Shown here: positions 1,074 to 24,470 of the stretch, one piece after another | Layout: each line of letters starts with the position of its first letter | Position numbering within the stretch: the first letter of the stretch is position 1 | Source: Vicinamibacterales bacterium | GTDB lineage: Bacteria; Acidobacteriota; Vicinamibacteria; Vicinamibacterales; 2-12-FULL-66-21 | Length of the DNA: 64,000 bases | Assembly (NCBI GenBank): GCA_035250005.1 | Contig: DATFFM010000184.1 | Location: 14,687-78,686 of the forward strand | Reading direction: 5' to 3' | The notes under the pieces: model-generated | Told to the model about the DNA's origin: nothing | What the model saw: only the letters and a program-made list of their open reading frames with translations | The model's database searches: none | Position numbers and translations under genes: made by a program

Positions 1074-3392
1074 CGCATCGATGGAGATACTGCGCCCGGC
1101 CGCATAGGCGCGCGCCCAGCGTGCCGGTCCCAGACGAGCGCGGACGTCGCGTTCCGCCTGCTCTCGGAGATCGTCCAGCGATTTATCGACCACTGTCGCG
1201 CCCGTGCGCTCGGTGACGGCGTCCCGGGCCCCCAGGATGCGCGCCGCCCACGCGTCGTCCCCCTCCAGCACTGCCGCCGCGGCGAGAGGGACCAACGCGT
1301 AGACGAAGGCGAACTTGTCATGGAGCTCCCGGACGTGCGCGAGGCTTTCACGCACCACCGCGATCGCCCCGCTGGCGTGCCCGCGGCGCACGGCGAGGAT
1401 GGCGCGGACATTCAGCGTGAGCGCCATGAACCATGGGCCAGTGTGCCGAAGCACCGAGGTGGCCTCATCGAGCAGGCGTTCCGCGTGCGCGGATTCGCCG
1501 GTCGTCAGCACGACCGCCGCCATCCCGGTCAGTGAATTCCCGAGCCCCCAGGGGAGCGCGAGGGCCCGAAACCTCTCAACCGCCTGGCCGAAGCGCTCGC
1601 TGGCCGCGTCGATATTGCCGCCGGCGTACTCGACGTGGCCCAGCAGATTCTGGGTCAGCGCCATCTCCATCTCCATGTTGCCGGTGTCGTTTGCCAGTGC
1701 CAGGGCGCGGGTCAGCGCGGCTCGAGCCTGCGCCAGTTCGGCTCGCGTGTACAACATCGCACCCGCTCCGAGGAGCATCTTCGCTTCGACCGATGGCGGC
1801 AGAGAAGGACCATGCAGGATCTGTTGATACCAGCGGAGGCCCTCGGCCGCGTGGCCACGAATGACCCAGAAGAAGAACAGGCTCCACGCGATGCTGGACG
1901 CTTCGGCGGAACGGCCGCGATCGATGAGCCAGGTCATGGCGCCGCGGTAGCTTTCGAGATCCTCACGCGTGCGGTCGAGCCATTCGATCTGCGAGAGCCC
2001 GCGCAGCCCCTCGGCGGCCTGGGAGGCTTCAGCGGTGGCGTAGCGCACCAGCCCCTCCATGGCGTCGTCGCGCTCACCCGCAGCGATGAGCTCAAGGGCC
2101 GCGTAGGCCCGAACGGTTTCGAGCATCTGGTAGAGCGGACACGTCGCCACCCCTGAGTTCTCGGCCCGCACGAGAAGGCTCTTGTCGATAAGAGCAGCGG
2201 TCGCGGCGAGCGCTTCGTCGATGCTCTCCACGCGACTATCGCCGCCGGCGAGGACCGCCGAGGCGGCGTCGAGCGGAAAGAGGCCCGGCAACGCGCCGAA
2301 GCGGCGGAAGGCGCACTGCTCGTCCGGTGCGAGCAGCCCATAACTCCACGCGACGGTCGCGTTCATCGTCCGCTGGCGTTCGGGCAGATCGCGGGCGCCG
2401 ACGGTCGAGAACAGCACATCGTGGGTGAGCCGGCGAAGCAGATTCTCCACCGTCAACACTTTCATCCACGGGGCGGCCAGCTCGAGCGCCAGCGGCAATG
2501 CGTCGAGCCGCCGGCAGATCGCGGTTACCGTGGGGGCGTTCTCGGAGGTCAGACGAAAGTCCGGTTGCACCTCTCGAACCCGTTCCACGAACAGCTGCAC
2601 CGCGGGAGCGAGTGCCGGATCGGCTGGCGCCATCGACTCCGAGTCGCTTTCGAGAGCCAGGGGGCCGACGGCGTACTCCCGCTCGCCACGTACGTGGAGC
2701 GGCGCGCGGCTGGTGACCAGCACTCTGAGCGGTGCGACCCACGCCAGGAGGTCAGCGATCAGGGGCGCGGCGTCCAGGACCTGTTCGAAATTGTCGACCA
2801 CCAGCAGCCTGCTCTGGTCGTGACACGCGGCGCGTGCCCGCCTTGGCAAATCGACCGCGGTGACGTCCGCCAACCCGAGAGCCTCGGCGATCGCCGCGGC
2901 GACGAACCCGGCATCCCTAACCGGGGCCAGCGACACAAACGCCACGCGGGTCGCGCCTTCTTCGGCGATCGCCCGTGCGAGCTCCAGCGCCAGGCGGGTC
3001 TTTCCGACGCCGCCCGGGCCGGTCAGGGTGATGAAGCGCACGGAAGGATCAGCGAGCCAGTGCCGCAGCATCTGCACGTCGGCATCGCGCCCCAGAAGGG
3101 GCGTGAGAGGCAGAGGGAGGGAGACGCGGGTCAGTTCATCGATCGCCGCGGCACGCGCGGGCGCCCGCGCGCTGCCGACAAACGCGTCGCGTGATGAACC
3201 GGCCAGGTCCAGTGCGGCAGACAGCGCCCGCACGGTCTCGACCTGGGGCCGGCGCCGCTGCCCGCGCTCCAGGGCGCTGATCGCGTGGACCGACAGGCCC
3301 GCAATCGTTGCCAGCTCCTCCTGGGTGTACCCGGCGGCCTGGCGGAGCGCTTTGAGCTGCGCCCCAAAGGTTCTCGGAGCGCCGACTGTCAT
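1023..3392 (-). CDS. XRE-type HTH + STAND/NB-ARC-like P-loop NTPase + TPR-like repeat protein
   Basis: N-terminal HTH (LKALRQAAGYTQEELATIAGLSVHAISALERG). Walker A is LTGPGGVGKTRLA and the Walker B-like segment is SRLLVVDNFEQV. The C-terminal ~350 aa are helical and repeat-rich (TPR-like). Confidence 0.85.
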   Translation of the reverse strand: MTVGAPRTFGAQLKALRQAAGYTQEELATIAGLSVHAISALERGQRRRPQVETVRALSAALDLAGSSRDAFVGSARAPARAAAIDELTRVSLPLPLTPLLGRDADVQMLRHWLADPSVRFITLTGPGGVGKTRLALELARAIAEEGATRVAFVSLAPVRDAGFVAAAIAEALGLADVTAVDLPRRARAACHDQSRLLVVDNFEQVLDAAPLIADLLAWVAPLRVLVTSRAPLHVRGEREYAVGPLALESDSESMAPADPALAPAVQLFVERVREVQPDFRLTSENAPTVTAICRRLDALPLALELAAPWMKVLTVENLLRRLTHDVLFSTVGARDLPERQRTMNATVAWSYGLLAPDEQCAFRRFGALPGLFPLDAASAVLAGGDSRVESIDEALAATAALIDKSLLVRAENSGVATCPLYQMLETVRAYAALELIAAGERDDAMEGLVRYATAEASQAAEGLRGLSQIEWLDRTREDLESYRGAMTWLIDRGRSAEASSIAWSLFFFWVIRGHAAEGLRWYQQILHGPSLPPSVEAKMLLGAGAMLYTRAELAQARAALTRALALANDTGNMEMEMALTQNLLGHVEYAGGNIDAASERFGQAVERFRALALPWGLGNSLTGMAAVVLTTGESAHAERLLDEATSVLRHTGPWFMALTLNVRAILAVRRGHASGAIAVVRESLAHVRELHDKFAFVYALVPLAAAAVLEGDDAWAARILGARDAVTERTGATVVDKSLDDLREQAERDVRARLGPARWARAYAAGRSISIDALLRDIDGVLRRGTPAG

Positions 3393-3410
3393 GACTCGCT
3401 CATCTTACGC

Positions 3411-3890: not shown

Positions 3891-4736
3891 ATGAGAGGGA
3901 AGCAATTCATGTTCTTCGTCACACACCGCTCGATCGTCTTCTCGGCCGCCGCGCTGCTCGTCATGACGTCCTCTGTCGCCGGACAGGAGACGCAACCCGC
4001 CATCCACGATGATGCAGAGGTGGTGCTGGCGGAGCCGGACTTCCGCGTTCTCAACCTCCCGTCCACGTTGAGGCTCCCGCGCCACGGATCGAGCTTCCAG
4101 CTCACCCATCGGTTCGACGGCAATCTTCGGCAGGGCAGCTTCAACGAGAATGCCGGCAATCTGTTCGGGCTCGATCAGGGAGCCGTGGTCGGTTTCGAGT
4201 ACCGGTTCGGTATCGCGCGACATCTGCAGGCCGCCATTTACCGGACGGCGATCGACCAGACGTTCCAGTTCTACGGCAAGTTCGACGCCGTGCGCCAGCA
4301 CGGTTCGATCCCGGTGTCGCTCTCGGCGCTCGCCTCAATCGAAGGTGTCGACAATTTCCAGGACCGGTATTCGCCCGCGCTGGGCCTGGTGGCTTCCCGG
4401 ACGGTGAGCGACCGGCTCGCCCTGTACGCCACGCCGGTGTGGGTTCACAACACGGCCGGGATCCTGAACATCGATCGCGACACGTTCTTCGTGGGCATCG
4501 GCGGCCGCGTGCGAGTGAGCTCCACCGTCTACCTCGTGGCCGAGGCCGCTCCCCGTGCCGGCGGCTACCGCCCCGACAAGGCCGCCTACGGGTTCGCCAT
4601 CGAGAAACGGGCCGGCGGTCACCTGTTTCAACTCAACGTCAACAACGGCCAGGGAACGACCTTCGGACAGATCGCGCGCGGCGGCCTCCCGGACAGTCTG
4701 TACCTCGGCTTCAACCTCGCGCGGAAATTCTTCTGA
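3891..4736 (+). CDS. putative outer-membrane beta-barrel protein
   Basis: Signal peptide (IVFSAAALLVMTSSVAGQ). Alternating hydrophobic pattern throughout. C-terminal aromatic residues (LARKFF). Confidence 0.6.
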   Translation: MRGKQFMFFVTHRSIVFSAAALLVMTSSVAGQETQPAIHDDAEVVLAEPDFRVLNLPSTLRLPRHGSSFQLTHRFDGNLRQGSFNENAGNLFGLDQGAVVGFEYRFGIARHLQAAIYRTAIDQTFQFYGKFDAVRQHGSIPVSLSALASIEGVDNFQDRYSPALGLVASRTVSDRLALYATPVWVHNTAGILNIDRDTFFVGIGGRVRVSSTVYLVAEAAPRAGGYRPDKAAYGFAIEKRAGGHLFQLNVNNGQGTTFGQIARGGLPDSLYLGFNLARKFF

Positions 4737-5371: not shown

Positions 5372-6199
5372 ATGACTCAGGTGAAGTTTGTTCCGCGTTT
5401 CAGTCTCTCCGCATTGTCCGTCGGTGTCGCGCTCGCGTTGCTGAGCGTCGTCCTGGTCCCGGCACACCCGACACAGGCGGCGCTCGTCGAAGCCGGTCAG
5501 GGCCCTCAGCTCCTCATCGGACTCGATGATGACAACCAGGCGAACGCCTTGATTCAGGCTGGCGCTGTCGCAAATCAATCGCTCAACCGCACCGACATTC
5601 TCGACGGCGGCCCTGGCAATGACGTCATCTTTGGATTGAACGGCAACGATGTCATGGATGGTGGCCCCGGTGACGACATCATCCTTGGCGGGCCGGACGG
5701 CGGGGCGGCACCGGGCGGTCCACCCAACAGCGACGTCATGTTGGGCGGACCGGGCGACGACGTGAATCTCTGGGCGCCTGGCGATGGCAGCGAGGCCTTT
5801 ATCGGAGGGCCAGGGGTCGACGCGATCATTTTCGGCGCGACCGATCGCGAGGCTGTTGCCGATCCGGCGACCGGTGTCCGGCTTCCGGCCCTGTCCTTTG
5901 GTGTTCCCGGGTTCCCCCAGGGCATCACCACCGCGGACGTGAGTGGGCTCGGAAACTTCTGCACGGTGGAGGCCAGCCCGTCCGCCGGGTATCAGTTTCT
6001 CGTGCGGTTCCGCTCGGCTGCGACGGGGAACATCGTCGTCACGGTGCGGGTGACGGATGTCGAGCAGGTCTTCTGCACGAGCCAGAGCGGCGCTTCAATC
6101 GCCTTCGCCGATCTGACGGTTCCCGCGCCGGCTTTCGACGTGGTCAGCCTGCCGGAGGTCCAGAGCCTGAACCCGCTCGTCGGCGCGATGATCCGGTAG
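5372..6199 (+). CDS. secreted RTX-like calcium-binding repeat protein
   Basis: Signal peptide, then repeated GGxGxD-type nonapeptides (DGGPGNDVIFGLNGNDVMDGGPGDDIILGGPDGG...LGGPGDDV...IGGPGVDAI). Confidence 0.7.
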   Translation: MTQVKFVPRFSLSALSVGVALALLSVVLVPAHPTQAALVEAGQGPQLLIGLDDDNQANALIQAGAVANQSLNRTDILDGGPGNDVIFGLNGNDVMDGGPGDDIILGGPDGGAAPGGPPNSDVMLGGPGDDVNLWAPGDGSEAFIGGPGVDAIIFGATDREAVADPATGVRLPALSFGVPGFPQGITTADVSGLGNFCTVEASPSAGYQFLVRFRSAATGNIVVTVRVTDVEQVFCTSQSGASIAFADLTVPAPAFDVVSLPEVQSLNPLVGAMIR

Positions 6200-6223
6200 C
6201 CGGACGCAAGCCGATGAAGGTCG

Positions 6224-6617
6224 ATGTCGTTGTGGCCTTCTTCATGGCCTTCGTGTGCTTCGTGCTCCTGGTACCTATACGTGCCGCGCGGCGGGAATGC
6301 CGACTGGACGAGCTGACGGGTGGATCACCAGGGACACGAAGAACACGAAGGGCACGACGGGAGACCACTACGCCAAGCGGCTGAGACTACGAGTCCAGCG
6401 ACTGGTTTTGACTTTTGAAAAAATGTCGTTGTGACCTTCTTCGTGGCCTTCGTGTGCTTCGTGCTCCTGGTGCCTATACGTGCCGCGCGGCGGGGACGCC
6501 GACTGGACGGGCTGACGGGTGGATCACCAGGGACACGAAGGGTACGAAGGGAGACCACCACGCCAGGCGGGTCGGACTACGAGTCAGCAGCGACTGATGT
6601 CTTCTTTTGAAAAAAAA
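6224..6617. repeat. two tandem ~195-199-bp units, each with an internal long imperfect hairpin
   Basis: Unit 1 is 6224-6422 and unit 2 is 6423-6617. They align by eye over their full length with scattered substitutions and one 9-nt indel. Left arm: GGCCTTCGTGTGCTTCGTGCTCCTGGT. Right arm: CACCAGGGACACGAAG(AACACGAAG)GG. Each unit ends in TTTTGAAAAA. Confidence 0.85.
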
Positions 6618-6629
6618 TGGTCGTCCTGG

Positions 6630-7355
6630 ATGTCCATGCGCTTCATCGTGACGGGCCTCTGCGTTATCGCGGTGGCGGCTGTCACGGCCGTGATCTGGTG
6701 GCGTTGGGCCAACGTCGGCCCGGTCCAGCGCGGCGCCGATCTGGCTCTGGCCCAGGGCTGTCTGGGCTGCCACGGAGGGCCTGGCGTGTCTCCGCTGCTC
6801 CCACGCCCCTTCGCGGATCTCGACGACGTCGACCCGGTCACGCTGCGGGAGTGGATTCTCGACGGCATGCCGTCGCGCGTGCGGCAGGACCCCGAGCTCC
6901 GTGAGGCGCTCGCGTCCGCGGCTATACGGATGCCGGCCTGGCGGGGGCGCATCTCTGATGCCCAGGTCGACGATCTCGTGGCCTACGTGCGCGCGTCGGC
7001 CGGCGCCGACGTGCCGGAAGATCCGGTCGCCCGGAAAGGACACGCCGTCGCTGGACGGCTCGGCTGCTTTCGCTGCCACGGCCCGGGCGGGCGCGGCGCG
7101 GGCAGCAATCCGGGGAGCCTCAAAGGCTACATCCCGCCGTGGGACGGCCGCGATTTCGCGGAGCTGGTCGCGGACGAGGGGGAGCTGAGAGAGTGGATCC
7201 TCGATGGCCGTCCGAAACGGCTGCAAGCCAACCGGCTGGCTCGCTTCTTCCTCGATCGTCAGTCGATTCGGATGCCAGCCTTTCGCGGGGAGGTCACCGA
7301 GGAGGAGCTGCGGGCGCTCGAGGCCTATATCGGCTGGCTGCGGGCGCCGGTGTGA
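6630..7355 (+). CDS. membrane-anchored dihaem c-type cytochrome
   Basis: Two CxxCH motifs (GCLGCHG, GCFRCHG), each followed by an RMPA(W/F)RG Met-ligand region. N-terminal TM helix. ATG at 6630 chosen; the upstream part of the ORF lies inside the repeat. Confidence 0.8.
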   Translation: MSMRFIVTGLCVIAVAAVTAVIWWRWANVGPVQRGADLALAQGCLGCHGGPGVSPLLPRPFADLDDVDPVTLREWILDGMPSRVRQDPELREALASAAIRMPAWRGRISDAQVDDLVAYVRASAGADVPEDPVARKGHAVAGRLGCFRCHGPGGRGAGSNPGSLKGYIPPWDGRDFAELVADEGELREWILDGRPKRLQANRLARFFLDRQSIRMPAFRGEVTEEELRALEAYIGWLRAPV

Positions 7356-10236: not shown

Positions 10237-12153
10237 CTAGAACCTGGAACCCAGACGCCCGCGGTGCAGGCAGCGCAGCCGTTCGGCGAGCGCACCGGGA
10301 TCGTCAGTGAAACAGCGCGCGTACGCCTTCGGGGCAGCCTCGACGTACTCGTGGAACAGCGCCTCGCGCCTCGCGCTCATCACGTTCTTCGCGATCACGT
10401 AGCGGATCACGCCCGACAGGCTGAGGATGATAGTGGACCCGCCGTAGAACCACCGCCCCTTCGCTTTGCGCCGCTGCACGATCTCGGCGACGAGATCCTC
10501 GTTGAACGTGCCGTCGGGCCCGACGCGGCGGACCTCCCTGACCGACTCGACGACCGGGCGCTCGATCTTCTTCGACGCGCTCGGCGTGGCCAGGCCGAAG
10601 TACACAAGGTGCCCCGGCAGGGTGACGTACGCGCCGACGAGTTGCGCGCGGCGGCGCTGCTGGGCCTGCTCGGTCAACTGCGGGCGGTTCTTCAGAATCG
10701 ACCGCAGGACCTGCGGCAGGTCCGCGTCCCGTTCACGACGGGAGAGGCCGGGGATGCGCGGCAGCCGGCGTTCGGGGCCCCGCCAGAGCAGCGCCCCCTC
10801 GCTGAGGTCGAGCACCCCTTCGACCTGAACGCCGTGCCGGCGAAACGCCCGCACCATCGCTTCTCGATACCCCCACTCGTCGTCGGGGATCAGGTCGTAG
10901 TCCGCGGTGAGCAGCGCGCGGAGGTACTCGCCGAAACGGAGATCGACCGGCGGACAGTAGTCGACGGCGCGGATGACGAGAGTCATGAACTGATCGGCGA
11001 TCCGCACCGCCTGCGCCGCCAGGAGATCGACCATCGCGTGCGGCAGACGTGCGCCGTCTGCCGGCGCGAGGCTCCGCAGCTGTTCCGTCTTCTTGTCGAA
11101 CACCGTCCGGAACGCATCGAATACCGCGCGCAGCAGGATGGCGCCCATGTCGTGCGCTTCGAGGCCGGGCTTGTACTGGTCCTTCTTCGGGACCGGCGCG
11201 TCGAGGTCGCCCGGGGTCAGAAACGCCGTGCGCAGCGGGGTCTCGCCATCGCCCGTGGTCTCGCCGAACTGGCGCGCGAGATCCACCAGCAGACGGGAGG
11301 TGATCGCTCCCCTGGCGTCCGCGATCGCCCGTCCGACCAGCTCGCGATAGCTGAATCGCTGGAGCAGCGCGATCAGATCCGCGAAGCCTTCGTGAAAGCC
11401 GTCCACGTCGGCGTTGGTCGGGAGCATGAACCGCGCGCGCATGCCGTCGAGCAGCGCGTGCGTCATCTCGTGGACGACGACATCATGGGACAGCGACGTG
11501 AAGACGATCGCTCCCGGCTGGTTGAGCCGCTGTGCGCGCCGGTTGGCGCGGGTGTAGCCGAACCGGACCGCCCCGAGATCGGGATCGTAATAGGCGTTGT
11601 CTTCCTCGAACGCGTGCGGATGCACGTGCAGCTTGACCACCGGCCGGTCCCCGATGCGATCGTCGGCGTGGGACGGAAACGAGAACTGCGGGTGCCGCCC
11701 GAGCGCCTGGCGGAAGCGGTGATACGTCACCGTCGTCAACGCGTAGGTCATCTGCTGGGCGAAGCGCGGATCGATGGTCGAGGGGCGGAGGCCCGCCGTC
11801 ATCACGACCGCGAGGTCGTCGAGCTCGACCGGCTCGTAGGCCTCCTTCGTCGTGTCGTTCACGTCCCGGACGGCGATCACCGATCCGACCGGGCCTTCTT
11901 CGAGCGGTTCGTAGGGCACGGCCAGTTCGGTGACCGCCGCGCTGGCCGTCGGCGTCGCCGGGTCCTGCGTGAACACCCGCAGCTTCCGGTGCGGGGGCAG
12001 CTGGATCGGCGAGGCCTGCGCTCCTTCGTCGGCCTGCCCCGGCCGCTTCGCCGCCGATTTCTGCTGCTCACGCAGAACGATGAACGGCTCGGCCGACTCC
12101 TTACGCTCGACCCGCGGGCCGAGCTCGTAGTGGACGGGCGGTGGCTTCGGCAC
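10237..12153 (-). CDS. thermolysin-like (M4-type gluzincin) metalloprotease without signal peptide
   Basis: EDNAYYDP...VRFGY...SHDVVVHEMTHALLDG...DGFHEGFADL parallels the thermolysin layout NAFW..YGDG..DVVAHELTHAV..NEAISD. GTG start at 12153, 2 nt after the upstream stop. No N-terminal hydrophobic segment. Confidence 0.8.
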   Translation of the reverse strand: MPKPPPVHYELGPRVERKESAEPFIVLREQQKSAAKRPGQADEGAQASPIQLPPHRKLRVFTQDPATPTASAAVTELAVPYEPLEEGPVGSVIAVRDVNDTTKEAYEPVELDDLAVVMTAGLRPSTIDPRFAQQMTYALTTVTYHRFRQALGRHPQFSFPSHADDRIGDRPVVKLHVHPHAFEEDNAYYDPDLGAVRFGYTRANRRAQRLNQPGAIVFTSLSHDVVVHEMTHALLDGMRARFMLPTNADVDGFHEGFADLIALLQRFSYRELVGRAIADARGAITSRLLVDLARQFGETTGDGETPLRTAFLTPGDLDAPVPKKDQYKPGLEAHDMGAILLRAVFDAFRTVFDKKTEQLRSLAPADGARLPHAMVDLLAAQAVRIADQFMTLVIRAVDYCPPVDLRFGEYLRALLTADYDLIPDDEWGYREAMVRAFRRHGVQVEGVLDLSEGALLWRGPERRLPRIPGLSRRERDADLPQVLRSILKNRPQLTEQAQQRRRAQLVGAYVTLPGHLVYFGLATPSASKKIERPVVESVREVRRVGPDGTFNEDLVAEIVQRRKAKGRWFYGGSTIILSLSGVIRYVIAKNVMSARREALFHEYVEAAPKAYARCFTDDPGALAERLRCLHRGRLGSRF

Positions 12154-12155
12154 GC

Positions 12156-15044
12156 TCAGCGATCCACCCGGGCCCTGAGCAGCTGCACGGCCGCCTCGAG
12201 ATGTGCGAGCAGTTGCGCATCAATGCTCGACAATGCCATGGGTTCTGACAGCGTGGCCGCAGACGGCACGGCCGCAGACGGCACGGCGGCGGCGCCCGAC
12301 AGCAGCGGGCGGCGCGCCATCCCGGCTGCAGCCGGCAGCATGAGGGGATGCTGCCGTTTCTTTGCCGCGACGATCTTCGCCACCTGTTTGATGAAGGCCT
12401 CGTTCGTGTCGCCGCGCCTGACCGCCTCGGCCAGAAAGGCGGTGGCGGCGCCGGTGAAGTCCCCCTGCCCCTTCGACTCCCACGCGAACTCGTTGTCGCG
12501 GCAGGCCGCGAGATGGATCACTCCGGGCGCCGACGACGGGAGCGCGCGCGACCGGGCCCGTGCGCTGCGATATTCGCGCGCGGCACCGAGCAGGTCGGGC
12601 GGCATGAAGCGCGCGCGGTCGGTGGCGGTCTCCACGCCGCGCACCGCCGGGGCGAATCGGCTGTTCGTGCCGCAGTGACAGCAATCCATGAACAGCGTCA
12701 GCGTGACGCCGGCCGGCAGCCCCTCCAGCGCGGTCGCGAACACGTCGTCCCGCAGCAGCATCAGCTCGCCTTCGCGGTAGTCGACCGGCACGAATGCCTC
12801 GTCGAAACCGTCCGCTTCGTCGCCGCTGTCGTCGGCGAGCTGTGTACCGTGACCCGCGTACTGAAACACGAGTACGTCGCCGGCCGACGCGCCGGCGAGC
12901 AGATCGCGCAGGCCATTCTGGATCCGGCGGTTGGTGGCCTGCTTGTTGCGAAGGTAGCGGACCTCGAATCCCAGCTCCGCCAGCACGCGCCCCCAGGCAT
13001 TGGCGTCGTTGACGCACCCGTCGAGCGGGCGGTCCGGATAGTCGTCGATGCCGATGCACAGCGCGACGCGGCGGCCGCGGTCCTGGCGCTCGCCCTCCTC
13101 GTCGCCGGGCTGGTCTTGGGCTGGCGGTGGACCGTCCGGATACGCGCGCCCGGGTTGCGACGCGCCCACGAGTGCGCCCGGCCGCATGGGCAGCGGCTCG
13201 AACGTCCGCGGCAGGGGCGGAAACGGGAAGTCGGCCTCCCCCAGCCCGGTCTGATCGTCGACGCCGAGTATCCGTCGGAGCGCCGCCGACATGGTCTTGG
13301 GATCGTTGTCGAAGGCGCCGTGCGCGAGCGCTCTCGTCAACGGATTCTCTTGCTTGTCGCGGGTGAATGAGAACTGGATCTCCGCCACCGGCGTCGCGCC
13401 GGGCACCGGGCGCCCCTCATCGTCTAGACCGTAGAACGCGCGCAGCTTGTCGTCCTTGCGGATGGACCGCTGCAGGCCGACAATGGGCCGCCGCTTGAGG
13501 CCTTCGAACGCGTGCGAGATGAAGTACAGCAGCGACTTGCGGTAGATCTTGAAGCAGTCGTCCTGCTCCTCTGCGTCTTCTTCCATCGTGAAGCAGGTGT
13601 GCCGGGCGATCTTCTTCGCCTCGATGAGCGGCAGGAGGTTCTCGACGAACAGCTCGGTGCGCGCGGCGGGCGCGAACAGCGAGAGCGTCTCGATCCGCGC
13701 GGCGCCGAGCTGGAGGAGCGCCGGCAGCAGATGCGCGTGGAAGATCGCGCCGGCGCTGTGCCCGATCGCGTGCAGCGTGACCTGCGTCGCCGCCGGGTCG
13801 GTCTTCAGAAACGCCGCCAGCTTCGACGCAAACAGATACGCGCCGCCCGGGAACCCTTCACCGAGATCCGCTGACGACGCACGGCGCGCGTTGCTTTTCA
13901 TCTCGGACCAGATGAACGTGCCCGGCCCCTTCGCGGCGAGCTCGATTGCGGCGTCGCTCGTCCAGTCGAAGAAGTCCCTCGCTCCGAAGAGCCGCTGGCG
14001 AAGCGTCTCGAGCAGGCCCGTCTCCCACACGAAGAAGACCGGGTAGACGCCTTTGGGCAGCCACCACCGGTACATCGTCTTCGCGTAGGCGAGGGCGTCC
14101 GCCTCGCCGACCAGCCCGCCGTGCGCGTACAACAGGATCCGCAGCGACGGATCGGCCGACGCCCGGTCGCGGATCGCGTCGATGATCCCGTCGAGATCCA
14201 TCGGCGACGTGGTGAACTCGCCGCCGGCCTCCGACAGCTCGCCCCGGCTCAGATTGACCACGTGCGGCTTCAGCTCGGTCCAGTCCTCGCCGCGGGCGGC
14301 GGACGGATCGGCGAGCAGCCGGGAGAAATCACGGCTGTACTGCCGCTGCGACCGCGCCACGCGGCTTCGCGTCTGCCGTTCCACCTCACGCGCGCCGGCG
14401 GCGTGTTCCGGCACCGTCGCGTTCGCCTGCTCGGTGTCGGGCACGGTGATCGCCGAAGGGTAGGTCGCGGGAGCGCCGGCGAGAAACTCCCGGGGAAACA
14501 CCCCGGCTGCCGGCGCTCGCCGGCCGATCTCCTTCGTCACGCGCGTCTCGAAGAGCGCCCGGTCGAACCCGCTGCCGGGGCACGTCTTCTGATTGTTGTT
14601 GAGCTCGCGATGAAACTTGATGTCGGCGAGCTGGAGCTTGAAGGTCTTCAGCAGATGCCCCACGACCGCCGCGGCGCTGTCGCGCTGCGCGCCGTCGAAG
14701 GGATCGTGGCCGGTGTCGAAGTTCCCGACGATCTCGATCATGAACGGGCCGGCCGCCGCCGTACCGTTGTGCCCCTTCGAGCTGGCGGGTGACAGGTTCC
14801 AGTTCCTTCCGGTCCAGAGGCCTCCCTGCGGGTCGATGGTCAGGTGCTGCGCGATGTCGCTCCACCCCTGCGAGAGATGAAAGCGGCGCATCGCCTCGAT
14901 CGTCTCGAGACCGCGGAAGTCGGCGCGCTCCGGCTTCCATGTGTGGTGCACGTGCACGGCGTCGATCGTGCGCACGAGCACGGACGCGTCGGGCAGCAGC
15001 AGACGGAACTGCACGACAGTGAGGCGCCGTATCGGTTCTGGCAT
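12156..15044 (-). CDS. multidomain protein: Amidase_2/PGRP (T7-lysozyme-like) + alpha/beta serine hydrolase (GHSAG) + caspase-like peptidase C14 (metacaspase)
   Basis: - Amidase domain (~14562-14978): VHVHHT...FHLSQGWSDIAQHLTID...FHRELNNNQKTCPGSGFD, with the His/His/Cys zinc triad of T7 lysozyme.
- Hydrolase domain (~13302-14159): LLYAHGG...HAIGHSAG.
- Caspase domain (~12342-13073): VALCIGIDDY...GCVNDA...FQYAGHG...DEADGFDEAF...LFMDCCHCG.
- Start set at the ATG at 15044, preceded by GGAGG 7 nt upstream.
- No signal peptide or TM segment. Confidence 0.85.
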   Translation of the reverse strand: MPEPIRRLTVVQFRLLLPDASVLVRTIDAVHVHHTWKPERADFRGLETIEAMRRFHLSQGWSDIAQHLTIDPQGGLWTGRNWNLSPASSKGHNGTAAAGPFMIEIVGNFDTGHDPFDGAQRDSAAAVVGHLLKTFKLQLADIKFHRELNNNQKTCPGSGFDRALFETRVTKEIGRRAPAAGVFPREFLAGAPATYPSAITVPDTEQANATVPEHAAGAREVERQTRSRVARSQRQYSRDFSRLLADPSAARGEDWTELKPHVVNLSRGELSEAGGEFTTSPMDLDGIIDAIRDRASADPSLRILLYAHGGLVGEADALAYAKTMYRWWLPKGVYPVFFVWETGLLETLRQRLFGARDFFDWTSDAAIELAAKGPGTFIWSEMKSNARRASSADLGEGFPGGAYLFASKLAAFLKTDPAATQVTLHAIGHSAGAIFHAHLLPALLQLGAARIETLSLFAPAARTELFVENLLPLIEAKKIARHTCFTMEEDAEEQDDCFKIYRKSLLYFISHAFEGLKRRPIVGLQRSIRKDDKLRAFYGLDDEGRPVPGATPVAEIQFSFTRDKQENPLTRALAHGAFDNDPKTMSAALRRILGVDDQTGLGEADFPFPPLPRTFEPLPMRPGALVGASQPGRAYPDGPPPAQDQPGDEEGERQDRGRRVALCIGIDDYPDRPLDGCVNDANAWGRVLAELGFEVRYLRNKQATNRRIQNGLRDLLAGASAGDVLVFQYAGHGTQLADDSGDEADGFDEAFVPVDYREGELMLLRDDVFATALEGLPAGVTLTLFMDCCHCGTNSRFAPAVRGVETATDRARFMPPDLLGAAREYRSARARSRALPSSAPGVIHLAACRDNEFAWESKGQGDFTGAATAFLAEAVRRGDTNEAFIKQVAKIVAAKKRQHPLMLPAAAGMARRPLLSGAAAVPSAAVPSAATLSEPMALSSIDAQLLAHLEAAVQLLRARVDR

Positions 15045-15172: not shown

Positions 15173-16048
15173 ATGGCGCGAGGCTTCGCATTGCTCGCCG
15201 CTTTGACCATGCTGCCGCCGCAGGCCCCGGCGCAGGAGAAGGCCACGTTCCGCAGCGGCGTGCAGACGGTGATGCTCCACGCCACCGTCCGCAGCGACGA
15301 CGGGCATCTCGTGCCGGATCTCACCCGCGACGACTTCGAGGTCCGCGACGAAGGGCAGCCGGTCGAGATCACCGTCTTTTCCAGTGATCCCCAACCGATC
15401 ACCGTCGTTCTGCTCCTCGACATGAGCGGCAGCATGGAGCGCCACTTTCTTCGCGTCCGCGACTCGACGAGGCATTTCATCGACGCGCTGCAGCCGGGCG
15501 ACCGGGCGCGGATCGGCTCATTCGGCGTCGAGGTGGCGCTGAGCCCCTGGCTGACGAGCGACAAGCGCATCCTCCACCGTGTCGTCAGCGAGGAATTGTG
15601 GCCGGGGGGCGGCACGCCGCTGTGGAACAGCGTCTACGGCGCCATGCAGTCTCTCGATCGCGAAAGCGGGCGGCGGGTCATCCTGGCGCTGACCGACGGG
15701 ATCGGAAACATGGATCTCCCGGGGCTCGAGGGTTCGTCGCGCCAGGCGCGCGACAAGGCCGAGGATGACGGGTTCATGGTGTACGCGATCGGCGTCGAGG
15801 GCTCTCCCCTCGACGCCAGCATCACGAGCCTCGCGGAGCGCACCGGCGGCGGCTTCTTCAAGCTGGAGACGGGGGCCGACCTCTCGCGCACGTTTCTTCG
15901 CGTCGTCGAGGAACTGCGTCATCAGTACGTCATCGGCTTTGCGCCGCCGAAGGCGGACGGCAAGATGCACGACGTCGACGTGAAGGTGAAGAAGCCGCGG
16001 ATGACCGCACGGGCCCGCAAGAACTATCGCGCACCGGGCGGCAGGTGA
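15173..16048 (+). CDS. VWA-domain protein (acidobacterial VWFA-related type)
   Basis: Signal peptide. N-terminal FRSGVQTVMLHATVRS...DFEVRDEGQPVEI module. MIDAS-type motif LLLDMSGSM. C-terminal region HDVDVKVKKPRMTARARKNY. Confidence 0.85.
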   Translation: MARGFALLAALTMLPPQAPAQEKATFRSGVQTVMLHATVRSDDGHLVPDLTRDDFEVRDEGQPVEITVFSSDPQPITVVLLLDMSGSMERHFLRVRDSTRHFIDALQPGDRARIGSFGVEVALSPWLTSDKRILHRVVSEELWPGGGTPLWNSVYGAMQSLDRESGRRVILALTDGIGNMDLPGLEGSSRQARDKAEDDGFMVYAIGVEGSPLDASITSLAERTGGGFFKLETGADLSRTFLRVVEELRHQYVIGFAPPKADGKMHDVDVKVKKPRMTARARKNYRAPGGR

Positions 16049-17148: not shown

Positions 17149-18033
17149 ATGCGCGGATTCGAACAACTCGCAGTGGTGTTGTGCGTTTGTGGGACGGTGG
17201 CGTTCGCGCAGCCGCCCGACGAACGGGCCGCGAAGGTGCTCGCCGACGCGCGCGCCGCCCTCGGCGGCGAAGCGAACCTGTCGGCGATCAAAAGCTTCAC
17301 CACCACCGGACGCACCCGCCGCGTCCAGGGTGAGAACCTGGTGCCCATCGAATTCGAGATGCTGGTCGAGCTCCCCGATAAATACCTGCGCAAGGACGAG
17401 ATCCCCGCGCAGGAAAGCGATCCGACGACCATCGGGTTCAACGGCGACGCGCTGCTGCAGATCCCGCCGCCGGCGCCCCCCACGCCACGACCCGGCATGC
17501 CGGCGCCGCCGCCCGGCCAGTTCGAAGCCATGCTCCAGCAGCGCACGCTGACCGCCCGGCAGGACTTCGCGCGATTGATGCTCGGCATGTTCGCCACGTC
17601 CTTTCAGGCGTACCCCCTGACCTTCAAGTACGTCGGCCAGGCCGAAGCGCCGCAGGGCAAGGCCAACGTGCTCGAGGCCACCGGCGCGAGCAACTTCAAG
17701 ATCCGCTTCTTCATCGACATCCAGACGAATCTGCCGATCATGGTGTCGTGGACGACGCCTGCCCGGCCGATGCCGGCGGGTCGCGGCGGACCGGGTGCTC
17801 CCTCCAGCCCCGGTGCCGCCGTACCGCCGGCCGCACCTCCCGCACCGCCGGCCGCGCCACCGTCGCCGCCGGAACAGCGTCTCTACTTCGCCGACTACCG
17901 CGACGTGGACGGCATCAAGCTCCCGTTCCGGCTGCGCCGTGGCGTGGGCGTGAACACCACCGAAGAGACCACCTTCGATCGTTTTCGCCTCAACCAGAAA
18001 ATCGATCCGCGCAGATTCGAGGTCAGGAAATGA
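17149..18033 (+). CDS. hypothetical secreted protein with proline-rich inserts
   Basis: Signal peptide LAVVLCVCGTVAFAQ. Pro/Ala-rich low-complexity tracts. Overlaps the next gene by ATGA. Confidence 0.6.
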   Translation: MRGFEQLAVVLCVCGTVAFAQPPDERAAKVLADARAALGGEANLSAIKSFTTTGRTRRVQGENLVPIEFEMLVELPDKYLRKDEIPAQESDPTTIGFNGDALLQIPPPAPPTPRPGMPAPPPGQFEAMLQQRTLTARQDFARLMLGMFATSFQAYPLTFKYVGQAEAPQGKANVLEATGASNFKIRFFIDIQTNLPIMVSWTTPARPMPAGRGGPGAPSSPGAAVPPAAPPAPPAAPPSPPEQRLYFADYRDVDGIKLPFRLRRGVGVNTTEETTFDRFRLNQKIDPRRFEVRK

Positions 18034-20669
18034 AACGTCCATCCACCCTGGTGTGCGGTGCGCTCGCGCTGCTGGTCTCCGCATTCGGATCGACCACGGC
18101 CTACGCACAGCCGCGCCCCGCGAAGCTGCTGCTCACGGTCGTGGACCAGACCGGCGCCGTCATCCCCAACGCCGTCGTGACGGCGACACGCGCCGACGAT
18201 CCGGCCAGAACGCCGATCGGGCCGGTGAAGACCATCGACACCGGGCTCGCGACGCTCGAGGGGCTGGCACCGGGGATCTACGAGATCCGGGCGGAGTTCC
18301 CGGGGTTCGAGCCGCGGGTGATGAAAGAGGTCAGGCTGCGCGCGGGTGACAACCGGCAGGTGGCGATTCTGGCGATCCAGGGGGTGCAGGACGAGATCAC
18401 CGTCGGCCGCGACCGGCAGGCGGCGGCGGCGGACCCGAAGTCCACCTTCGGCACCACGCTCACGCGCGAGCAGATCGAGGCGCTGTCGGACGATCCCGAC
18501 GAGATGCGCCGCCAGATCATGGACATGGCGCCCGAGGCCGTTCTGCGCATCGACAGCTTCGAAGGGGGGCAGCTCCCGCCGAAGGCGCAGATCAAGTCGA
18601 TCCACATCACGCGGGACCAGTACGCAGCCGAGAGCCACTACGCCGGCGCCCACTTCATCGACATCATCACGCAGCCCGGCATGGGCCCGATCCGCGGCGG
18701 CACGAACTTCCGCTTCCGCGACCGATCGCTGAATGCCACCAACCCGCAGACCAATTTCAAGGGGCCCGAGCAGTCGCGCAACTACGGGATCAACTTCGGC
18801 GGCACGCTCATCAAGGGCAAGAGCTCGTTCGCGCTCTCGATCAACGGCGGCGGCTTCTACGATGCCCCGACGATCGTCAGCCAGGGCCCCGAGGGGCGGC
18901 GCATCGAAACACTCCCGATCAAGCGCCGCCGCGACAACGTCTATGCCTACGGCAACTTCGACTACGCGCTGACCAAAGACCAGACCCTCCGAATGAGCTT
19001 CGACACGTCGTCCTTCAGCAGCGACAACCAGGGCATCGGACAGTTCGACGAACGCGAGCGCGGCTACGCCACGAGTGAGACCGGCACGACCGTGCGCATC
19101 CAGGAGGCCGGGCCGCTCGGGCGGCGCTTCTTCATCAACACCCGGCTGCAGCTGCACTATCAGCGCAGCGATCGGGAGTCTGACGTGGAGCTGCCGACGA
19201 TCAGGATCGTCGATGCCCGCACCACCGGCGGCGCCCAGCAGAGCGGCGGACGCCGCGGCCGTGGGCTGAACCTCATGTCGGATCTCGACTACGTCCGCGG
19301 GATCCACTCCTTGCGCACCGGCATCGACATCAACGGCAGCTGGTACGAGTCCAACGAAGACTCCAATTATCTCGGCACCTACACGTTCGAGAGCATCGAC
19401 GACTTCCTCGCGGGGAGGCCCCGCAGCTACACCAGGCGCATCGGCGATCCGAACATCAAGTACCACAACGTGCTGGGCGCCGTGTACCTGCAGGACGACA
19501 TCCGCGTTCGCAAGAACCTGACGCTCAGCCCGGGGATCCGCTACGAGCTCCAGACGCATCTCGACGACTTCAACAGCTTCGCCCCCCGCTTCGGCGTCAA
19601 CTGGGCCCCCTTCAAGAGCGGCAAAACGACCATTCGGGCGAGCTGGGGGATCTTCTACGACTGGTTCAGCACCGGGACGTACGAGCAGACGCTGCGCGTG
19701 GACGGCTTCAGGCAGCAGGAGCTGAACATCCTCGATCCCACCTATCCGGACCCGGGCGATACCGGGATCGTCAACGCCACCAATCGATACCTGATGGGCG
19801 ATGACCTCGGCCTGGTCCGGACGAACCGGCTGAGCGCCGGTGTCTCGCAGACCATCACCCCGCGCATCCGCGTGAGCGCGACCTACGCCAACACCCGCTA
19901 CCATGGATTGCTTCGCGGGGAGAACCTCAATGCCCCGGTCAGCGGTCTGCGGCCGGACCCGCGCTTCTCCAATGTCATCCAGATCCGGGACGATGCGGAG
20001 TCGCGGACGAACCAGCTGTCGTCGAGCATGAGCATCAGCCTGGCGACGCCCGGGCCCGCGGCGCAGCAGGCGCGTTTCAACCTGCGCCGCGGCTCGGTGA
20101 ACATGGGGTACACGCTCGCCAGGCAGCGCAGCAACTCGGACGGCGCCTTCAGCATCCCGTTCAGCGGCAGCCCTGCCGGGGAGTGGGGTCCGGCCAACAA
20201 CGACATCCGCCATCGGCTCAACGTCGGCTTGAACAGCCAGGCGCTGAAGAACATGAACATGTTCGTGTCGATGACCTACACGTCGGCCACGCCCTACACG
20301 ATCCGCACCGGGACCGACGACAACGGCGACCTCGTCTTCAACGACCGTCCGGCGGGAGTCGGCCGCAATACCGAGCGCGGCGAGGCGCTCATGAACGTCA
20401 ACGCCAACGCCTCCTATTCGATTCCGTTCGGCACGCGGAAAGTCGACGCCCCGCAGGGCATCATGATCCGTGACGGGATGGTGATGGCCGGCGCGCCCGG
20501 CGCCGCTCAGTCACGCTACCGGATCTCGCTGGGTCTGAGCGTGCAGAACCTGACCAACCGTGTGAACCACACCGGCTGGAACGGCACGATGACCTCGCCG
20601 TTCTTCCGGCAGTCCACGAACGTCGGTGCGCCGCGGAAGATCGACATGAGCGTGTCCTTCTCGTTCTGA
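18030..20669 (+). CDS. CarboxypepD_reg-domain TonB-dependent-receptor-like outer-membrane barrel
   Basis: Signal peptide. N-terminal LLLTVVDQTGAVIPNAVVTATR...YEIRAEFPGFEP (carboxypeptidase-regulatory-like fold). Long beta-rich body ending ...IDMSVSFSF. ATG at 18030 inside ORF 17748-20669. Confidence 0.8.
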   Translation: MKRPSTLVCGALALLVSAFGSTTAYAQPRPAKLLLTVVDQTGAVIPNAVVTATRADDPARTPIGPVKTIDTGLATLEGLAPGIYEIRAEFPGFEPRVMKEVRLRAGDNRQVAILAIQGVQDEITVGRDRQAAAADPKSTFGTTLTREQIEALSDDPDEMRRQIMDMAPEAVLRIDSFEGGQLPPKAQIKSIHITRDQYAAESHYAGAHFIDIITQPGMGPIRGGTNFRFRDRSLNATNPQTNFKGPEQSRNYGINFGGTLIKGKSSFALSINGGGFYDAPTIVSQGPEGRRIETLPIKRRRDNVYAYGNFDYALTKDQTLRMSFDTSSFSSDNQGIGQFDERERGYATSETGTTVRIQEAGPLGRRFFINTRLQLHYQRSDRESDVELPTIRIVDARTTGGAQQSGGRRGRGLNLMSDLDYVRGIHSLRTGIDINGSWYESNEDSNYLGTYTFESIDDFLAGRPRSYTRRIGDPNIKYHNVLGAVYLQDDIRVRKNLTLSPGIRYELQTHLDDFNSFAPRFGVNWAPFKSGKTTIRASWGIFYDWFSTGTYEQTLRVDGFRQQELNILDPTYPDPGDTGIVNATNRYLMGDDLGLVRTNRLSAGVSQTITPRIRVSATYANTRYHGLLRGENLNAPVSGLRPDPRFSNVIQIRDDAESRTNQLSSSMSISLATPGPAAQQARFNLRRGSVNMGYTLARQRSNSDGAFSIPFSGSPAGEWGPANNDIRHRLNVGLNSQALKNMNMFVSMTYTSATPYTIRTGTDDNGDLVFNDRPAGVGRNTERGEALMNVNANASYSIPFGTRKVDAPQGIMIRDGMVMAGAPGAAQSRYRISLGLSVQNLTNRVNHTGWNGTMTSPFFRQSTNVGAPRKIDMSVSFSF

Positions 20670-20765: not shown

Positions 20766-22583
20766 TCACCATCCAACCTTCTTGCCGCGATTCTGTTCGT
20801 CCAGCCACTTCTTGAGCGGCTCGAAGTACTCGGCCATGGCGGTGGCGTCCATCTGACGCTGGCCGGTGAGCGCTTCGAGTGCGTCGGGCCATGGTTTCGA
20901 GGCGCCGATCGCCATCATGGCGTTGAGTCGCTTGCCGGCCTCCTTGTTGCCGTAGATCGAGCAGCGGTGGAGCGGGGCCGTACATCGGGCTGCCTTCGCA
21001 AGCGCGCGGTGGAACTGATATTCGAGGATGTGCGCGAGGAAGTAACGCGTGTAGGGCGTATTGGCCGGCACGTGGTACTTCGCGCCCGGATCGAAGAACT
21101 CCTCGCCGCGGGCTGCCGGTGGCGCAACACCCTGGTATTTCAGCTTCAAGTCCCACCAGGCCTGGTTGTAGTTCTGTGGCGTGATCTGCCCCGAGAACAC
21201 CTGCCAGCGCCACTGGTCCACCAGCAGCCCGAACGGCAGGAAGGCGAGCCGCTCGAGCGCACCACGCAGCAGCAGGCCGGTGTCGGCCGATGCGTCGGGC
21301 GCCTTGTCGAGCAGATCGATCTTCACCAGGTATTCGGGGGTCACCGAGAGTGCGAGCACGTCCCCGAGGGCCTCGTGGAACCCGTCGTTCGCGCTGTCGC
21401 GGAAGATCACCGGCTGCTTGTTATAGGCGCGCTGGTAGTAGTTGTGTCCGAGCTCGTGGTGGATCGTCGAGAAGTCCTCCGCCGTCTGGTCGATGCACAT
21501 CTTGATCCGCAGGTCGTCGACGCTGTCGATGTTCCAGGCGCTCGCGTGGCAGACCACTTCACGGTCGCGCGGCTTGACGAACAACGAACGCTCCCAGAAG
21601 GTCTTCGGCAGCGGATCGAAGCCGAGCGATGAGAAGAAGCGCTCGCCGATCCGCACCATCTCCAGCGGGTCGATCTTCTTCGCCTTCAGGTTGTCGGTGA
21701 GCGAGAAGGCCTGCTGTTCACCGGCGGGCGCCACGATCTCGTAGATATTCGACCAGTCCTGCTGCCAGAGATTGCCGAGCAGGTGCGCGGGGATCGGCCC
21801 GTTTTCGGGGACGACGTCGCCGTACTTCTCGCGCAGCTTCGTCCGCGTGTAGGTGTGCAGTGAGAGGTACAGCGGCCGCAACTGTTCCCAGAGCCGATCC
21901 AGCTCCTTTGCGAACGCATCCGCCGGCATGTCGTACTTGCCGCGCCACATCGCGCCCGTGTCGGTGAAGCCGAGGACCTTCGCCCCCTTGTTCGAGAGTG
22001 CGGCGAACCGCGCGTAGTCCTGCTTCATCGGCACGGAGATCGTGTGCCAGCCTTCCCAGACCTCCTGGAGCCGCTTCGGGTCCCGGTTCTCGGCGAGGAT
22101 CTCGCTGATCTGCTCGATGTCGAGGCAGTCCTTTTCAGACGGGCAGTACTTGCCGCTGCCGTAGACCCCCTCCATCGACGTGATCAGCCGCGTCAGCTCC
22201 TGCGCCTCCTTCGGATCCGGCGGTGACGCCATCGTCAGTGAAGTCTTGAGGAGATACAGCTGCCGGCGTTCGGCGGGTGAGACCTGGACCTTGTCGAAGC
22301 GGACGGCTGCCGTCGCGAAGTGCGTCTGCGCGTTGACCAGCGCCTCGTTGGCCTGCGCCGCCATGATCTCGGTATCGGGCGTGATGTACGTGGACTGCGT
22401 CCATCCGGCCCGGCTCTCGGCGGTCCCAAGCTCCAGCAGGACTCGATTGGCTTCGTCGAGGAAAGCCTTGACGCCTGCCGGCGTGGCCGGATGTTTCGTC
22501 GTGGCCGGCGCCGACTGAGCGGAGAGGACGATCGCGGAGGCGAGGAGGATTCCTGAGGCGGCGGCCGAAACGAAGCGCGTCAT
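20766..22583 (-). CDS. M2-family (angiotensin-converting-enzyme-like) peptidyl-dipeptidase
   Basis: Signal peptide. HHELGHNYY zinc motif with a downstream FHEALGD glutamate. Length and overall pattern typical of bacterial ACE homologues. Confidence 0.9.
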
Positions 22584-23521: not shown

Positions 23522-23662
23522 CACACGTAACGACCGCAATCAGTGTGCCGATGGATGCCGGGGCTTTCGGACTGATCACCAGCTCGGCGTTGCGCAGTTG
23601 TTCGTGATCCGTAATGCCTTACCACCAAGGGCGAGTGCGAATCGATGAGCTGGCCGGCGCGC

Positions 23663-24358: not shown

Positions 24359-24470
24359 GTTGCACCTCTGTGAGGTGCCTGGGGCAGGATCCGTGCCACG
24401 GATGAGGTAAGGAAGTTGGCCGGAAAAATGACGGCAACCCGGTCCGGCAGTGCCAACTGTCCTCGTCGGG

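Follow-up and report, generated by a model that had tools for sequence, protein, structure and literature searches.

In secreted cascades headed by M4 metalloproteases (aureolysin→SspA→SspB, LasB→LasA, and gelE–sprE with processing of the AtlA autolysin), the metalloprotease activates protease or peptidoglycan-hydrolase zymogens, which are sometimes encoded in the same operon. A cytoplasmic HExxH zinc metalloprotease, Lit of prophage e14, acts as a phage-triggered suicide enzyme in abortive infection, with EF-Tu as its target. Protealysin from Serratia proteamaculans is a thermolysin-type enzyme that lacks a signal peptide, is described as intracellular, shares an operon with its inhibitor emfourin (M4in) and has been proposed to play a role in conflict (PMC9505478). 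Adjacent partner proteases activate the MBL pro-nucleases of the Hachiman, AVAST and canu systems, and a thermolysin-like metalloprotease is not mentioned in the main text of the study that showed this (PMC12799240). The available portion of Asplund-Samuelsson et al. 2012 (PMC3501461) records four Amidase_2-metacaspase proteins, proposes for them a role in programmed cell death or autolysis, and does not mention a metalloprotease neighbour. Here we describe a thermolysin-like zinc protease encoded in a 64,000-nucleotide stretch of contig DATFFM010000184.1 from a Vicinamibacterales bacterium (the whole stretch analysed, referred to as the window), together with the amidase–hydrolase–metacaspase fusion protein encoded directly upstream of it (referred to as the partner). 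As the protease almost always adjoins a second destructive enzyme, here the amidase–esterase–metacaspase fusion, the pair stands out as a strong candidate for a module of bacterial self-destruction or anti-phage defence that has not been described before.

With M4 thermolysin and vibriolysin (MEROPS clan MA(E), gluzincins) the protease shares the HExxH motif, the downstream ExxxD with the third ligand, and an NAxY/W strand before the HExxH helix. Unlike them, it has neither a signal peptide nor an FTP/PepSY propeptide, is predicted to be cytoplasmic and is linked in an operon to hydrolases, and its family carries ~50 extra N-terminal residues, the DYCPPVD motif and a C-terminal β/α domain of ~100 aa. 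The nearest intracellular precedent is protealysin, also a signal-peptide-free thermolysin-type protease in a two-gene operon. However, protealysin is a bona fide M4 enzyme by sequence and has a small inhibitor as its partner, whereas the window protease has no small inhibitor gene beside it and is adjoined by a Zn-alcohol dehydrogenase gene (Zn-ADH) downstream and a 962-aa multi-enzyme partner upstream. The M4-headed cascades are extracellular and M4 proper, whereas the window protease is predicted to be cytoplasmic and is only M4-like; Lit belongs to an unrelated family and is a single gene with a known target and no partner hydrolase.

A first-pass annotation of this DNA, made from the letters alone, had placed the protease start at a GTG 2 nt past the stop of the caspase-fusion gene. 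We read the same junction, TGA-GC-GTG, in the sequence (Table 1), and its layout allows translational coupling of the partner and the protease. The 638-aa product was identical to the one annotated by NCBI at this locus (P0001). Since the GTG is the first start codon past the preceding in-frame stop, a longer N-terminus is impossible. A Kyte-Doolittle hydropathy scan of the protease detected no signal peptide and no transmembrane (TM) segment (best 19-residue mean 1.37; best 10-residue mean in the first 60 aa 0.38), in agreement with the first-pass annotation, and the homologues had equally short and hydrophilic N-termini. Judged from its sequence, the protease is a cytoplasmic, non-secreted zinc endopeptidase.

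The motifs on which the thermolysin likeness had been based, NAYYD, RFGY (residues 197-200), DVVVHEMTHALLD (224-236) and HEGFAD (254-259), were all present and are not chance occurrences, as the key residues were invariant in the 83 family sequences compared. H228, E229, H232, H254, E255, D259, R308 and C400 were found in every one of them, D236 was Asp in 81/83 and H334 was kept in 82/83; the catalytic residues and R308 were unchanged whatever the partner type. The hhalign comparison with thermolysin, for which the thermolysin sequence used was verified, aligned HEMTH 228-232 with H142-E143-xx-H146, E255 with E166 and D259 with D170 (prob 68%, E 4.7e-5). R308 and H334 are separated by 26 residues, compared with 28 for R203 and H231 of thermolysin, and from this spacing they may be equivalent to that pair. 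NAYYD sits in a β-strand of the structural model and is probably the counterpart of the thermolysin N112-A113-F-W substrate-binding edge strand. We know of no thermolysin counterpart of DYCPPVD.

The AlphaFold2 (AF2) model of the protease, built on the family alignment (pLDDT 83.4, pTM 0.88), had M4 vibriolysin MCP-02 (3nqz_B) as its sole significant fold match in the PDB by Foldseek (E 2.6e-5; TM-score 0.58 over the target, ~12% identity). On the other hand, Pfam PF01447 scored only 11.9 bits (E 0.31) where the cut-off is 22.4, with the sub-threshold match spanning residues 183-235, M4_C (PF02868) was not reported, and a family profile of 32 sequences had no match to PDB sequences at E<=10. 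No significant family was found in NCBIfam, PADLOC or PHROGs, and no FTP or PepSY propeptide domain in Pfam, while weak matches to DUF4344 (Pfam), DUF7739 and OlsG were dismissed as noise. The layout that had been called M4-type is supported for the fold and the zinc site and not for sequence membership: the protease lies outside M4 by sequence criteria and is M4-type only at the level of clan, fold and active site. From sequence and model, it is predicted to be a catalytically competent HExxH + ExxxD gluzincin with a thermolysin-like fold.

It had also been proposed that a non-hydrophobic N-terminal region of ~180 aa takes the place of the usual pre-pro region. This does not hold, as residues ~53-227 are a conserved, folded part of the enzyme: they were strongly conserved in the alignment and folded with confidence in the AF2 model as β-strands and a long helix, and most likely make up the N-lobe of a thermolysin fold. 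To their N-terminal side lies a variable extension of ~50 aa, in which residues 10-30 were modelled with high pLDDT. At the other end, the linker at ~460-500 is variable, partly of low confidence and Arg-rich, and leads to the extra C-terminal domain, for which Foldseek gave only weak NTF2/OCP-CTD-like fold matches (E>1). This domain is a candidate regulatory or sensor domain.

The conservation of the two genes as neighbours, which the first-pass annotation had named as a check, was confirmed from both sides. A caspase gene was located directly upstream and on the same strand in ~55/84 protease-found loci, and nearly all of these caspase genes shared the Amidase_2 – middle domain – caspase architecture, in genera that include Pseudomonas, Polaromonas, Aurantimonas and Longimicrobium. 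The distance from the partner stop to the protease start was between -17 and +23 nt in 53/56 loci, with frequent ATGA/GTGA overlaps or TAGATG. In three distant metagenomic relatives on megabase contigs (48-56% identity), Peptidase_C14 was directly upstream in all three and the other neighbours were unrelated. For the reciprocal test, 80 metagenomic loci were collected through partner-specific motifs, and the protease lay immediately downstream of the partner in 64 of the 67 with enough downstream sequence. Pairwise distances of the protease and the partner were also correlated (r=0.63). The pairing of the protease with the caspase fusion is thus near-obligate in both directions and across phyla.

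Table 1. Features of the protease–partner locus in the window, and partner types found with the protease in other loci
Feature	Position in window	Strand	Description
Protease gene	10237..12153	-	638 aa, GTG start 12151-12153, stop 10237-10239; open reading frame and translation
Gene junction	12154..12158	-	Partner TGA 12156-12158, 2-nt spacer GC, then GTG
HEMTH, residues 228-232	11458..11472	-	Zinc-binding HExxH and catalytic Glu; invariant 83/83
E255-G-F-A-D259	11377..11391	-	Third zinc ligand Glu and Asp of ExxxD gluzincin motif; invariant 83/83
NAYYD, residues 186-190	11584..11598	-	Motif before HExxH; N186 81/83, A187 78/83, Y189 80/83
DYCPPVD, residues 398-404	10942..10962	-	Family-specific, near-invariant, helical C-lobe; from alignment
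C-terminal extra domain, residues ~530-631	10261..10566	-	Four-stranded sheet and helices; AF2 secondary structure and pLDDT
Partner gene	12156..15044	-	962 aa: Amidase_2 (PGRP/T7-lysozyme type) – α/β-hydrolase – metacaspase
Amidase_2 domain, partner residues ~25-157	14574..14972	-	His/His/Cys zinc ligands and Lys conserved
Middle α/β-hydrolase-like domain, partner residues ~255-600	13245..14282	-	G428-H-S430-x-G432 invariant
Metacaspase domain, partner residues ~658-901	12342..13073	-	His732/Cys789 dyad intact, invariant
Partner type: TPR-CHAT protein			
Partner type: S8 subtilase			Fused N-terminally in same open reading frame, then MBL-fold hydrolase
Partner type: M43 metzincin			With conserved open reading frame of ~110 aa
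Partner type: astacin-like metzincin			Downstream (Bradyrhizobium, Methylobacterium)
Partner type: M10-like metzincin			
Partner type: patatin-like phospholipase			Upstream, with MBL hydrolase downstream (Rhizobium, Agrobacterium plasmids)
Partner type: SMC-like AAA ATPase			Upstream, with MBL downstream (Hymenobacter)
Partner type: tandem protease duplication			Dead N-terminal copy (HExxH -> ARQAT or HSVTH), then MBL

The partner most likely starts at ATG 15044 and not at 15191, the start of a mechanical 1011-aa open reading frame (ORF): GGAGG lies 6 nt upstream of this ATG, the alignment backs it, and the product is identical to the NCBI 'caspase family protein' P0269. A divergent VWA-domain gene at 15173-16048 (+) is overlapped only by the 1011-aa version, so the apparent overlap disappears with the corrected start; as a member of the module this gene was rejected, since it is not conserved beside the relatives. 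Pfam detected Amidase_2 (1.1e-12, 48.8 bits) and Peptidase_C14 (2.5e-29, 103 bits), and the AF2 model had a pLDDT of 80.9. In the amidase domain, which matched PGRPs and T7 lysozyme in the PDB, H31/H33, H145 and C155 were invariant in the alignment and K153 nearly so. The middle domain had no PDB sequence match; its GHSxG lies as a nucleophile elbow between a strand and a helix within a β-α-β pattern of the model, and a related partner matched DUF7379 and a PGAP1-like family; sequence and model point to an α/β-hydrolase of the esterase or lipase type. PDB profile matches of the metacaspase domain included GSU0716, Mca1, TbMCA2 and AtMC4/9, and the top Foldseek matches of the partner were the metacaspases AtMC9, AtMC4 and GSU0716. 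Disordered segments were predicted by the model at 236-251 and 614-655, both interdomain linkers, and at 791-801 and 920-938; the loop 791-801 directly follows the catalytic Cys, at a position often processed in enzymes of the caspase family. The amidase, the middle domain and the caspase thus all appear to be active.

In the precomputed Pfam annotation, two relatives of the partner (P0376 and P0321) combine Amidase_2–caspase with an additional Trypsin (PF00089) or CHAT (PF12770) domain. The middle α/β-hydrolase domain was also found fused to a C1 (papain-like) peptidase in plasmid proteins of ~645 aa from Eleftheria and Sinorhizobium (L184:6035-7972 and L185:6197-8155). These have no thermolysin-like neighbour, and they were rejected as members of the cassette for want of a metalloprotease beside them.

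For the Cys and metallo proteases of the locus, the first-pass annotation had suggested a proteolytic cascade or an activator/substrate relationship. The link to the caspase fusion is conserved, but the description is too narrow, since many partners are not caspases and some are not proteases (Table 1): the metalloprotease is the constant element and the caspase is one of many swappable partners. In the protease tree, each partner type formed a clade nested within the caspase-type sequences; therefore, swaps were few and were afterwards stably inherited. In many cassettes of protease and MBL, the gap to the MBL gene was 2-14 nt. In the tandem forms P0121 and P0127 (L093:2733-6062 and L094:695-4099), the C-terminal copy was intact and the MBL gene followed 2-3 nt on; the dead and active copies suggest a heterodimer of pseudo-enzyme and enzyme. 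Direct fusions were also detected, joining Amidase_2 to the protease, the protease to PG_binding_1 and CHAP, the protease to PG_binding_1 and a GH19-like domain, and S8 to the protease and GDPD, and gene neighbours of family members included GH25, 'cell wall hydrolase' and amidase. A cell-envelope theme runs through these fusions and neighbours (Amidase_2, CHAP, GH19, GH25, 'cell wall hydrolase', PG_binding_1, patatin and GDPD). Where inspected, the N-termini of partner proteases and fusion proteins showed no obvious signal peptide, and the catalytic motifs were intact.

In the M43 cassettes, the ORF of ~110 aa (…WVHVFEEDT..GAVYRP…PLSRRPRERL…) lies between the M43 peptidase and the thermolysin-like gene (L062:5638-5982, L078:4281-4616 and L063:2431-2772). 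It had no Pfam match and no emfourin match, and it could be an inhibitor or an adaptor. An ORF family labelled 'unk', conserved upstream of certain homologues, was considered as another partner and rejected as an out-of-frame artefact, because its translation is rich in R, H and P and because of the profile of GC at third codon positions (GC3); the real genes there are the M43 peptidase and the ~110-aa ORF.

Bacterial gasdermin systems, in which a caspase-like, CHAT, S8 or trypsin protease accompanies a gasdermin, resemble these cassettes in having one constant protein with swappable proteases and a predicted lytic death. Unlike them, the cassettes described here contain no gasdermin, their constant protein is an intact protease in its own right, and certain partner sets are protease-free.

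The protease family is large and widely scattered. More than 1,264 relatives were found in 90%-identity clusters, all annotated as 'hypothetical', and the 50%-identity clusters numbered 4,524 at E<=1e-3 and 1,229 at E<=1e-30. With DYCPPVD as the search pattern, at least 529 species genomes of 185,579 were detected, in ~10 phyla. The phyla with the protease include Acidobacteriota, Pseudomonadota, Gemmatimonadota, Planctomycetota, Verrucomicrobiota, Bacteroidota, Chlorobiota, Armatimonadota and Nitrospirota, and the family was present in 39 plasmid records, conjugative plasmids included. The distribution is patchy and resembles that of horizontal gene transfer (HGT), with the protease as the core of a compact, horizontally mobile cassette. 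No description of the family or the cassette was found in the full texts searched, whose coverage was incomplete; the 2012 record of Amidase_2-metacaspase fusions and the 2025 study of proteases and pro-nucleases were the only ones with a bearing on it.

Distant homologues of the protease are also encoded on eight phage or viral contigs from IMG/VR (L085-L092), which have 34-55% GC and reach 390 kb in length; in every locus the match lies at ~6001-6700. They are 470-600 aa long with 25-32% identity over the catalytic core, carry the motifs NAYYDR, VVAHExGHAILD and AFHEAFAD, and several have a Cys-rich C-terminal tail (…PWKPENNAGC…). They had no PHROG and only sub-threshold Pfam M4/M4_C matches, in line with the sub-threshold M4 match of the window protease.

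The plasmid cassettes adjoin a CBASS cyclase with a SAVED effector, ImmA/IrrE-HTH, AAA + HNH, DUF1837 + DEAD-box helicase (Hachiman-like), DUF3800, TcmP, a restriction endonuclease, two SIR2 genes, DUF2235, IS5/Tn3, integrases, WYL and MPN. In HamMAB, Avs1, Lamassu and canu CanABC (Tuck et al. 2025), a protease gene likewise stands beside an MBL-fold hydrolase that needs cleavage, in modular arrangements located in defence islands. Many of the sister cassettes consist of a protease and an MBL gene, a likeness of layout that implies no homology to HamM or CanC, and two of them lie directly upstream of DUF1837 and helicase genes. On the other hand, the proteases of the known systems are trypsin-like or caspase-like, and no MBL gene belongs to the cassette of the window, in which the amidase–esterase–metacaspase protein would take the place of a putative pro-enzyme. 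In two plasmid loci (L178:6815-15087 from Agrobacterium and L179:6839-15184 from Rhizobium), the order patatin – protease – MBL is followed within ~115-130 nt by DUF1837 and a DEAD/DEAH helicase. By analogy, this may be a five-gene composite comparable to HamMAB, in which the metalloprotease replaces the trypsin-like domain.

With a confidence that is evenly balanced, we read the pair as a conflict module that would act in programmed cell death or abortive infection and in which the metalloprotease would control its partner through limited proteolysis. The metalloprotease would cut the partner at the disordered linkers ~236-251 or 614-655, or in the loop 791-801 after the caspase Cys, and this cleavage would release or activate envelope-destroying enzymes. 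In the case of the window, the esterase/lipase, the peptidoglycan amidase and the metacaspase would be set free or activated, and together they could break through the membrane and wall from within. In sister cassettes, the same protease would license a patatin phospholipase, an MBL-fold hydrolase, a subtilase or metzincins. Control of the protease itself could lie in its extra C-terminal domain, its variable N-terminal segment or dimerisation, the last being suggested because the natural tandem forms carry one dead copy. The direction from metalloprotease to partner is favoured since several partner sets (patatin + MBL, AAA + MBL, tandem + MBL) contain no protease, so that the metalloprotease cannot be a substrate of theirs. 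In a wider and more tentative reading, somewhat doubtful in our view, the family could be the signature of widespread undescribed immune or programmed-death systems, in which the cytoplasmic metalloprotease would sense infection or damage and then license swappable lytic effectors by proteolysis, the window encoding the commonest version, a 'PGRP-type amidase – lipase – metacaspase' suicide protein.

Several points weigh against the conflict-module reading. Proteolytic control, in its existence as well as its direction, is something we infer; the amidase, esterase and caspase appear catalytically intact, and no obvious gating insertions were verified in them. For a cytoplasmic system, peptidoglycan hydrolases that lack an export route would be odd effectors if the membrane were not broken beforehand. 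P0035 (L181:10001-11920), closely related to the protease at 58% identity over the aligned region, has no caspase neighbour and lies downstream of AMP-binding fragments, and the protease was absent in 3/67 partner loci (L118, L124 and L148). The chromosomal caspase-type cassettes, including that of the window, are located amid ordinary variable metabolic genes with no obvious defence island; the evidence from defence islands is confined to a handful of plasmid loci, whose subtypes differ from the window's, and PADLOC has no model for the protease.

An unlikely alternative reverses the direction, so that the metalloprotease would be an executioner zymogen that a metacaspase, CHAT, S8 or metzincin partner activates by cleavage, in the way that bacterial gasdermins are activated by caspase-like proteases. 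A single constant protein whose protease partners come from several catalytic classes would mirror the gasdermin logic, and cuts could be made in the flexible segments of the protease, at 296-309, at 473-480 and in the linker before its C-terminal domain. Metacaspases are Arg/Lys-specific, which fits the Arg-rich composition of the 460-500 linker. However, cassettes exist in which the only partners are non-proteases (patatin + MBL, AAA + MBL, or tandem copies + MBL), and R308 of the flexible loop is invariant whatever the partner, so that it is more likely to be catalytic, as the counterpart of R203 by spacing. Since R308 is kept in caspase-free cassettes as well, the R308 loop was rejected as a metacaspase cleavage site.

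It is also improbable, in our estimate, that the cassettes encode an offensive toxin cocktail against other bacteria or eukaryotes, delivered by non-classical export (type VI secretion system, extracellular contractile injection systems, vesicles or lysis of a subpopulation). Domains typical of effectors and endolysins do occur without signal peptides (Amidase_2, CHAP, GH19, GH25, PG_binding_1 and patatin, with DUF2235 as a neighbour), the ~110-aa ORF of the M43 cassettes might serve as an inhibitor or immunity protein, and an effector role of this sort has been suggested for protealysin, an intracellular M4 enzyme whose operon also encodes its inhibitor (PMC9505478). Yet the caspase-type loci have no conserved immunity gene, the downstream gene being variable, and no secretion-system, VgrG, PAAR or Rhs neighbour, and the plasmid copies are located amid anti-phage systems and not secretion clusters.

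We regard as quite improbable a housekeeping or developmental role unrelated to phage, either cytoplasmic turnover of peptidoglycan fragments and peptides in an AmpD-like manner or regulated autolysis in development or biofilm. The amidase had a weak AmpD-like match, the chromosomal caspase-type loci lie among metabolic genes, and a role in cell death or autolysis was already proposed for Amidase_2-metacaspase fusions in 2012 (PMC3501461). However, the patchy, HGT-like spread (529/185,579 species, ~10 phyla, conjugative plasmids) argues against it, and the swapping of partners among unrelated hydrolases and the defence-island neighbours are unlike a recycling pathway. Finally, M4-family enzymes are usually secreted pre-pro-proteins, but the notion that a wrong start hid the signal peptide of an ordinary thermolysin, secreted for nutrition or virulence, is effectively refuted by the lack of an in-frame start upstream of the GTG, the short hydrophilic N-termini of the homologues, a hydropathy maximum far below that of a signal or TM segment, and the absence of an FTP/PepSY propeptide and of an M4 Pfam match; nutrient proteolysis, which the first-pass annotation had disfavoured, is very unlikely.

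The protease family is new within a known clan; to the conflict modules controlled by proteases, a theme already known, it would add a new class of protease and a new set of effectors. Despite its size and its invariant catalytic residues, the family is without a counterpart in Pfam, NCBIfam, PHROG, PADLOC or the PDB, and its members are named 'hypothetical protein'. If the conflict-module reading is true, a metalloprotease class would join the trypsin-like and caspase-like activators of pro-enzyme effectors in bacterial immunity, and the long-noted Amidase_2–metacaspase fusions would find an explanation. It would also provide a two-gene, all-enzymatic cell-lysis module for study and engineering; in the wider reading, a peptidoglycan-recognition fold would be tied to a caspase within one bacterial module, with a second protease in control. 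Whether or not the defence reading is correct, MEROPS classification and genome annotation gain from the definition of a cytoplasmic thermolysin-like family that has an obligate hydrolase partner.

Exact protein matches place the window in a metagenome-assembled genome of the Vicinamibacterales (Acidobacteriota). Its base composition is ~67% GC, and a scan for promoters and terminators gave no signal above shuffled expectation. The Zn-ADH gene, which lies 72 nt downstream of the protease, was considered as a third cassette gene and rejected; it is excluded from the module because the downstream gene is different in every relative. Together with the VWA gene and this dehydrogenase, the cassette has as a neighbour in the window, ~7 kb away, an HTH-AAA-TPR protein. 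This last protein, encoded at 1023-3404 (-), has 793 aa, combines HTH_31/HTH_3 with an AAA/NB-ARC/NACHT-like NTPase and TPR, and resembles a STAND-type regulator or sensor. Three further genes showed no link to the cassette, namely a DUF5777 membrane β-barrel at 3891-4736 (+), an RTX calcium-binding repeat protein at 5372-6199 (+) and a CarboxypepD_reg + outer-membrane β-barrel protein at 17748-20669 (+). At 20766-22583 (-), the window encodes a full-length bacterial homologue of angiotensin-converting enzyme (Peptidase_M2, 740 bits), and the two ORFs downstream of it (22580-23539 and 23663-24499) had no Pfam match.

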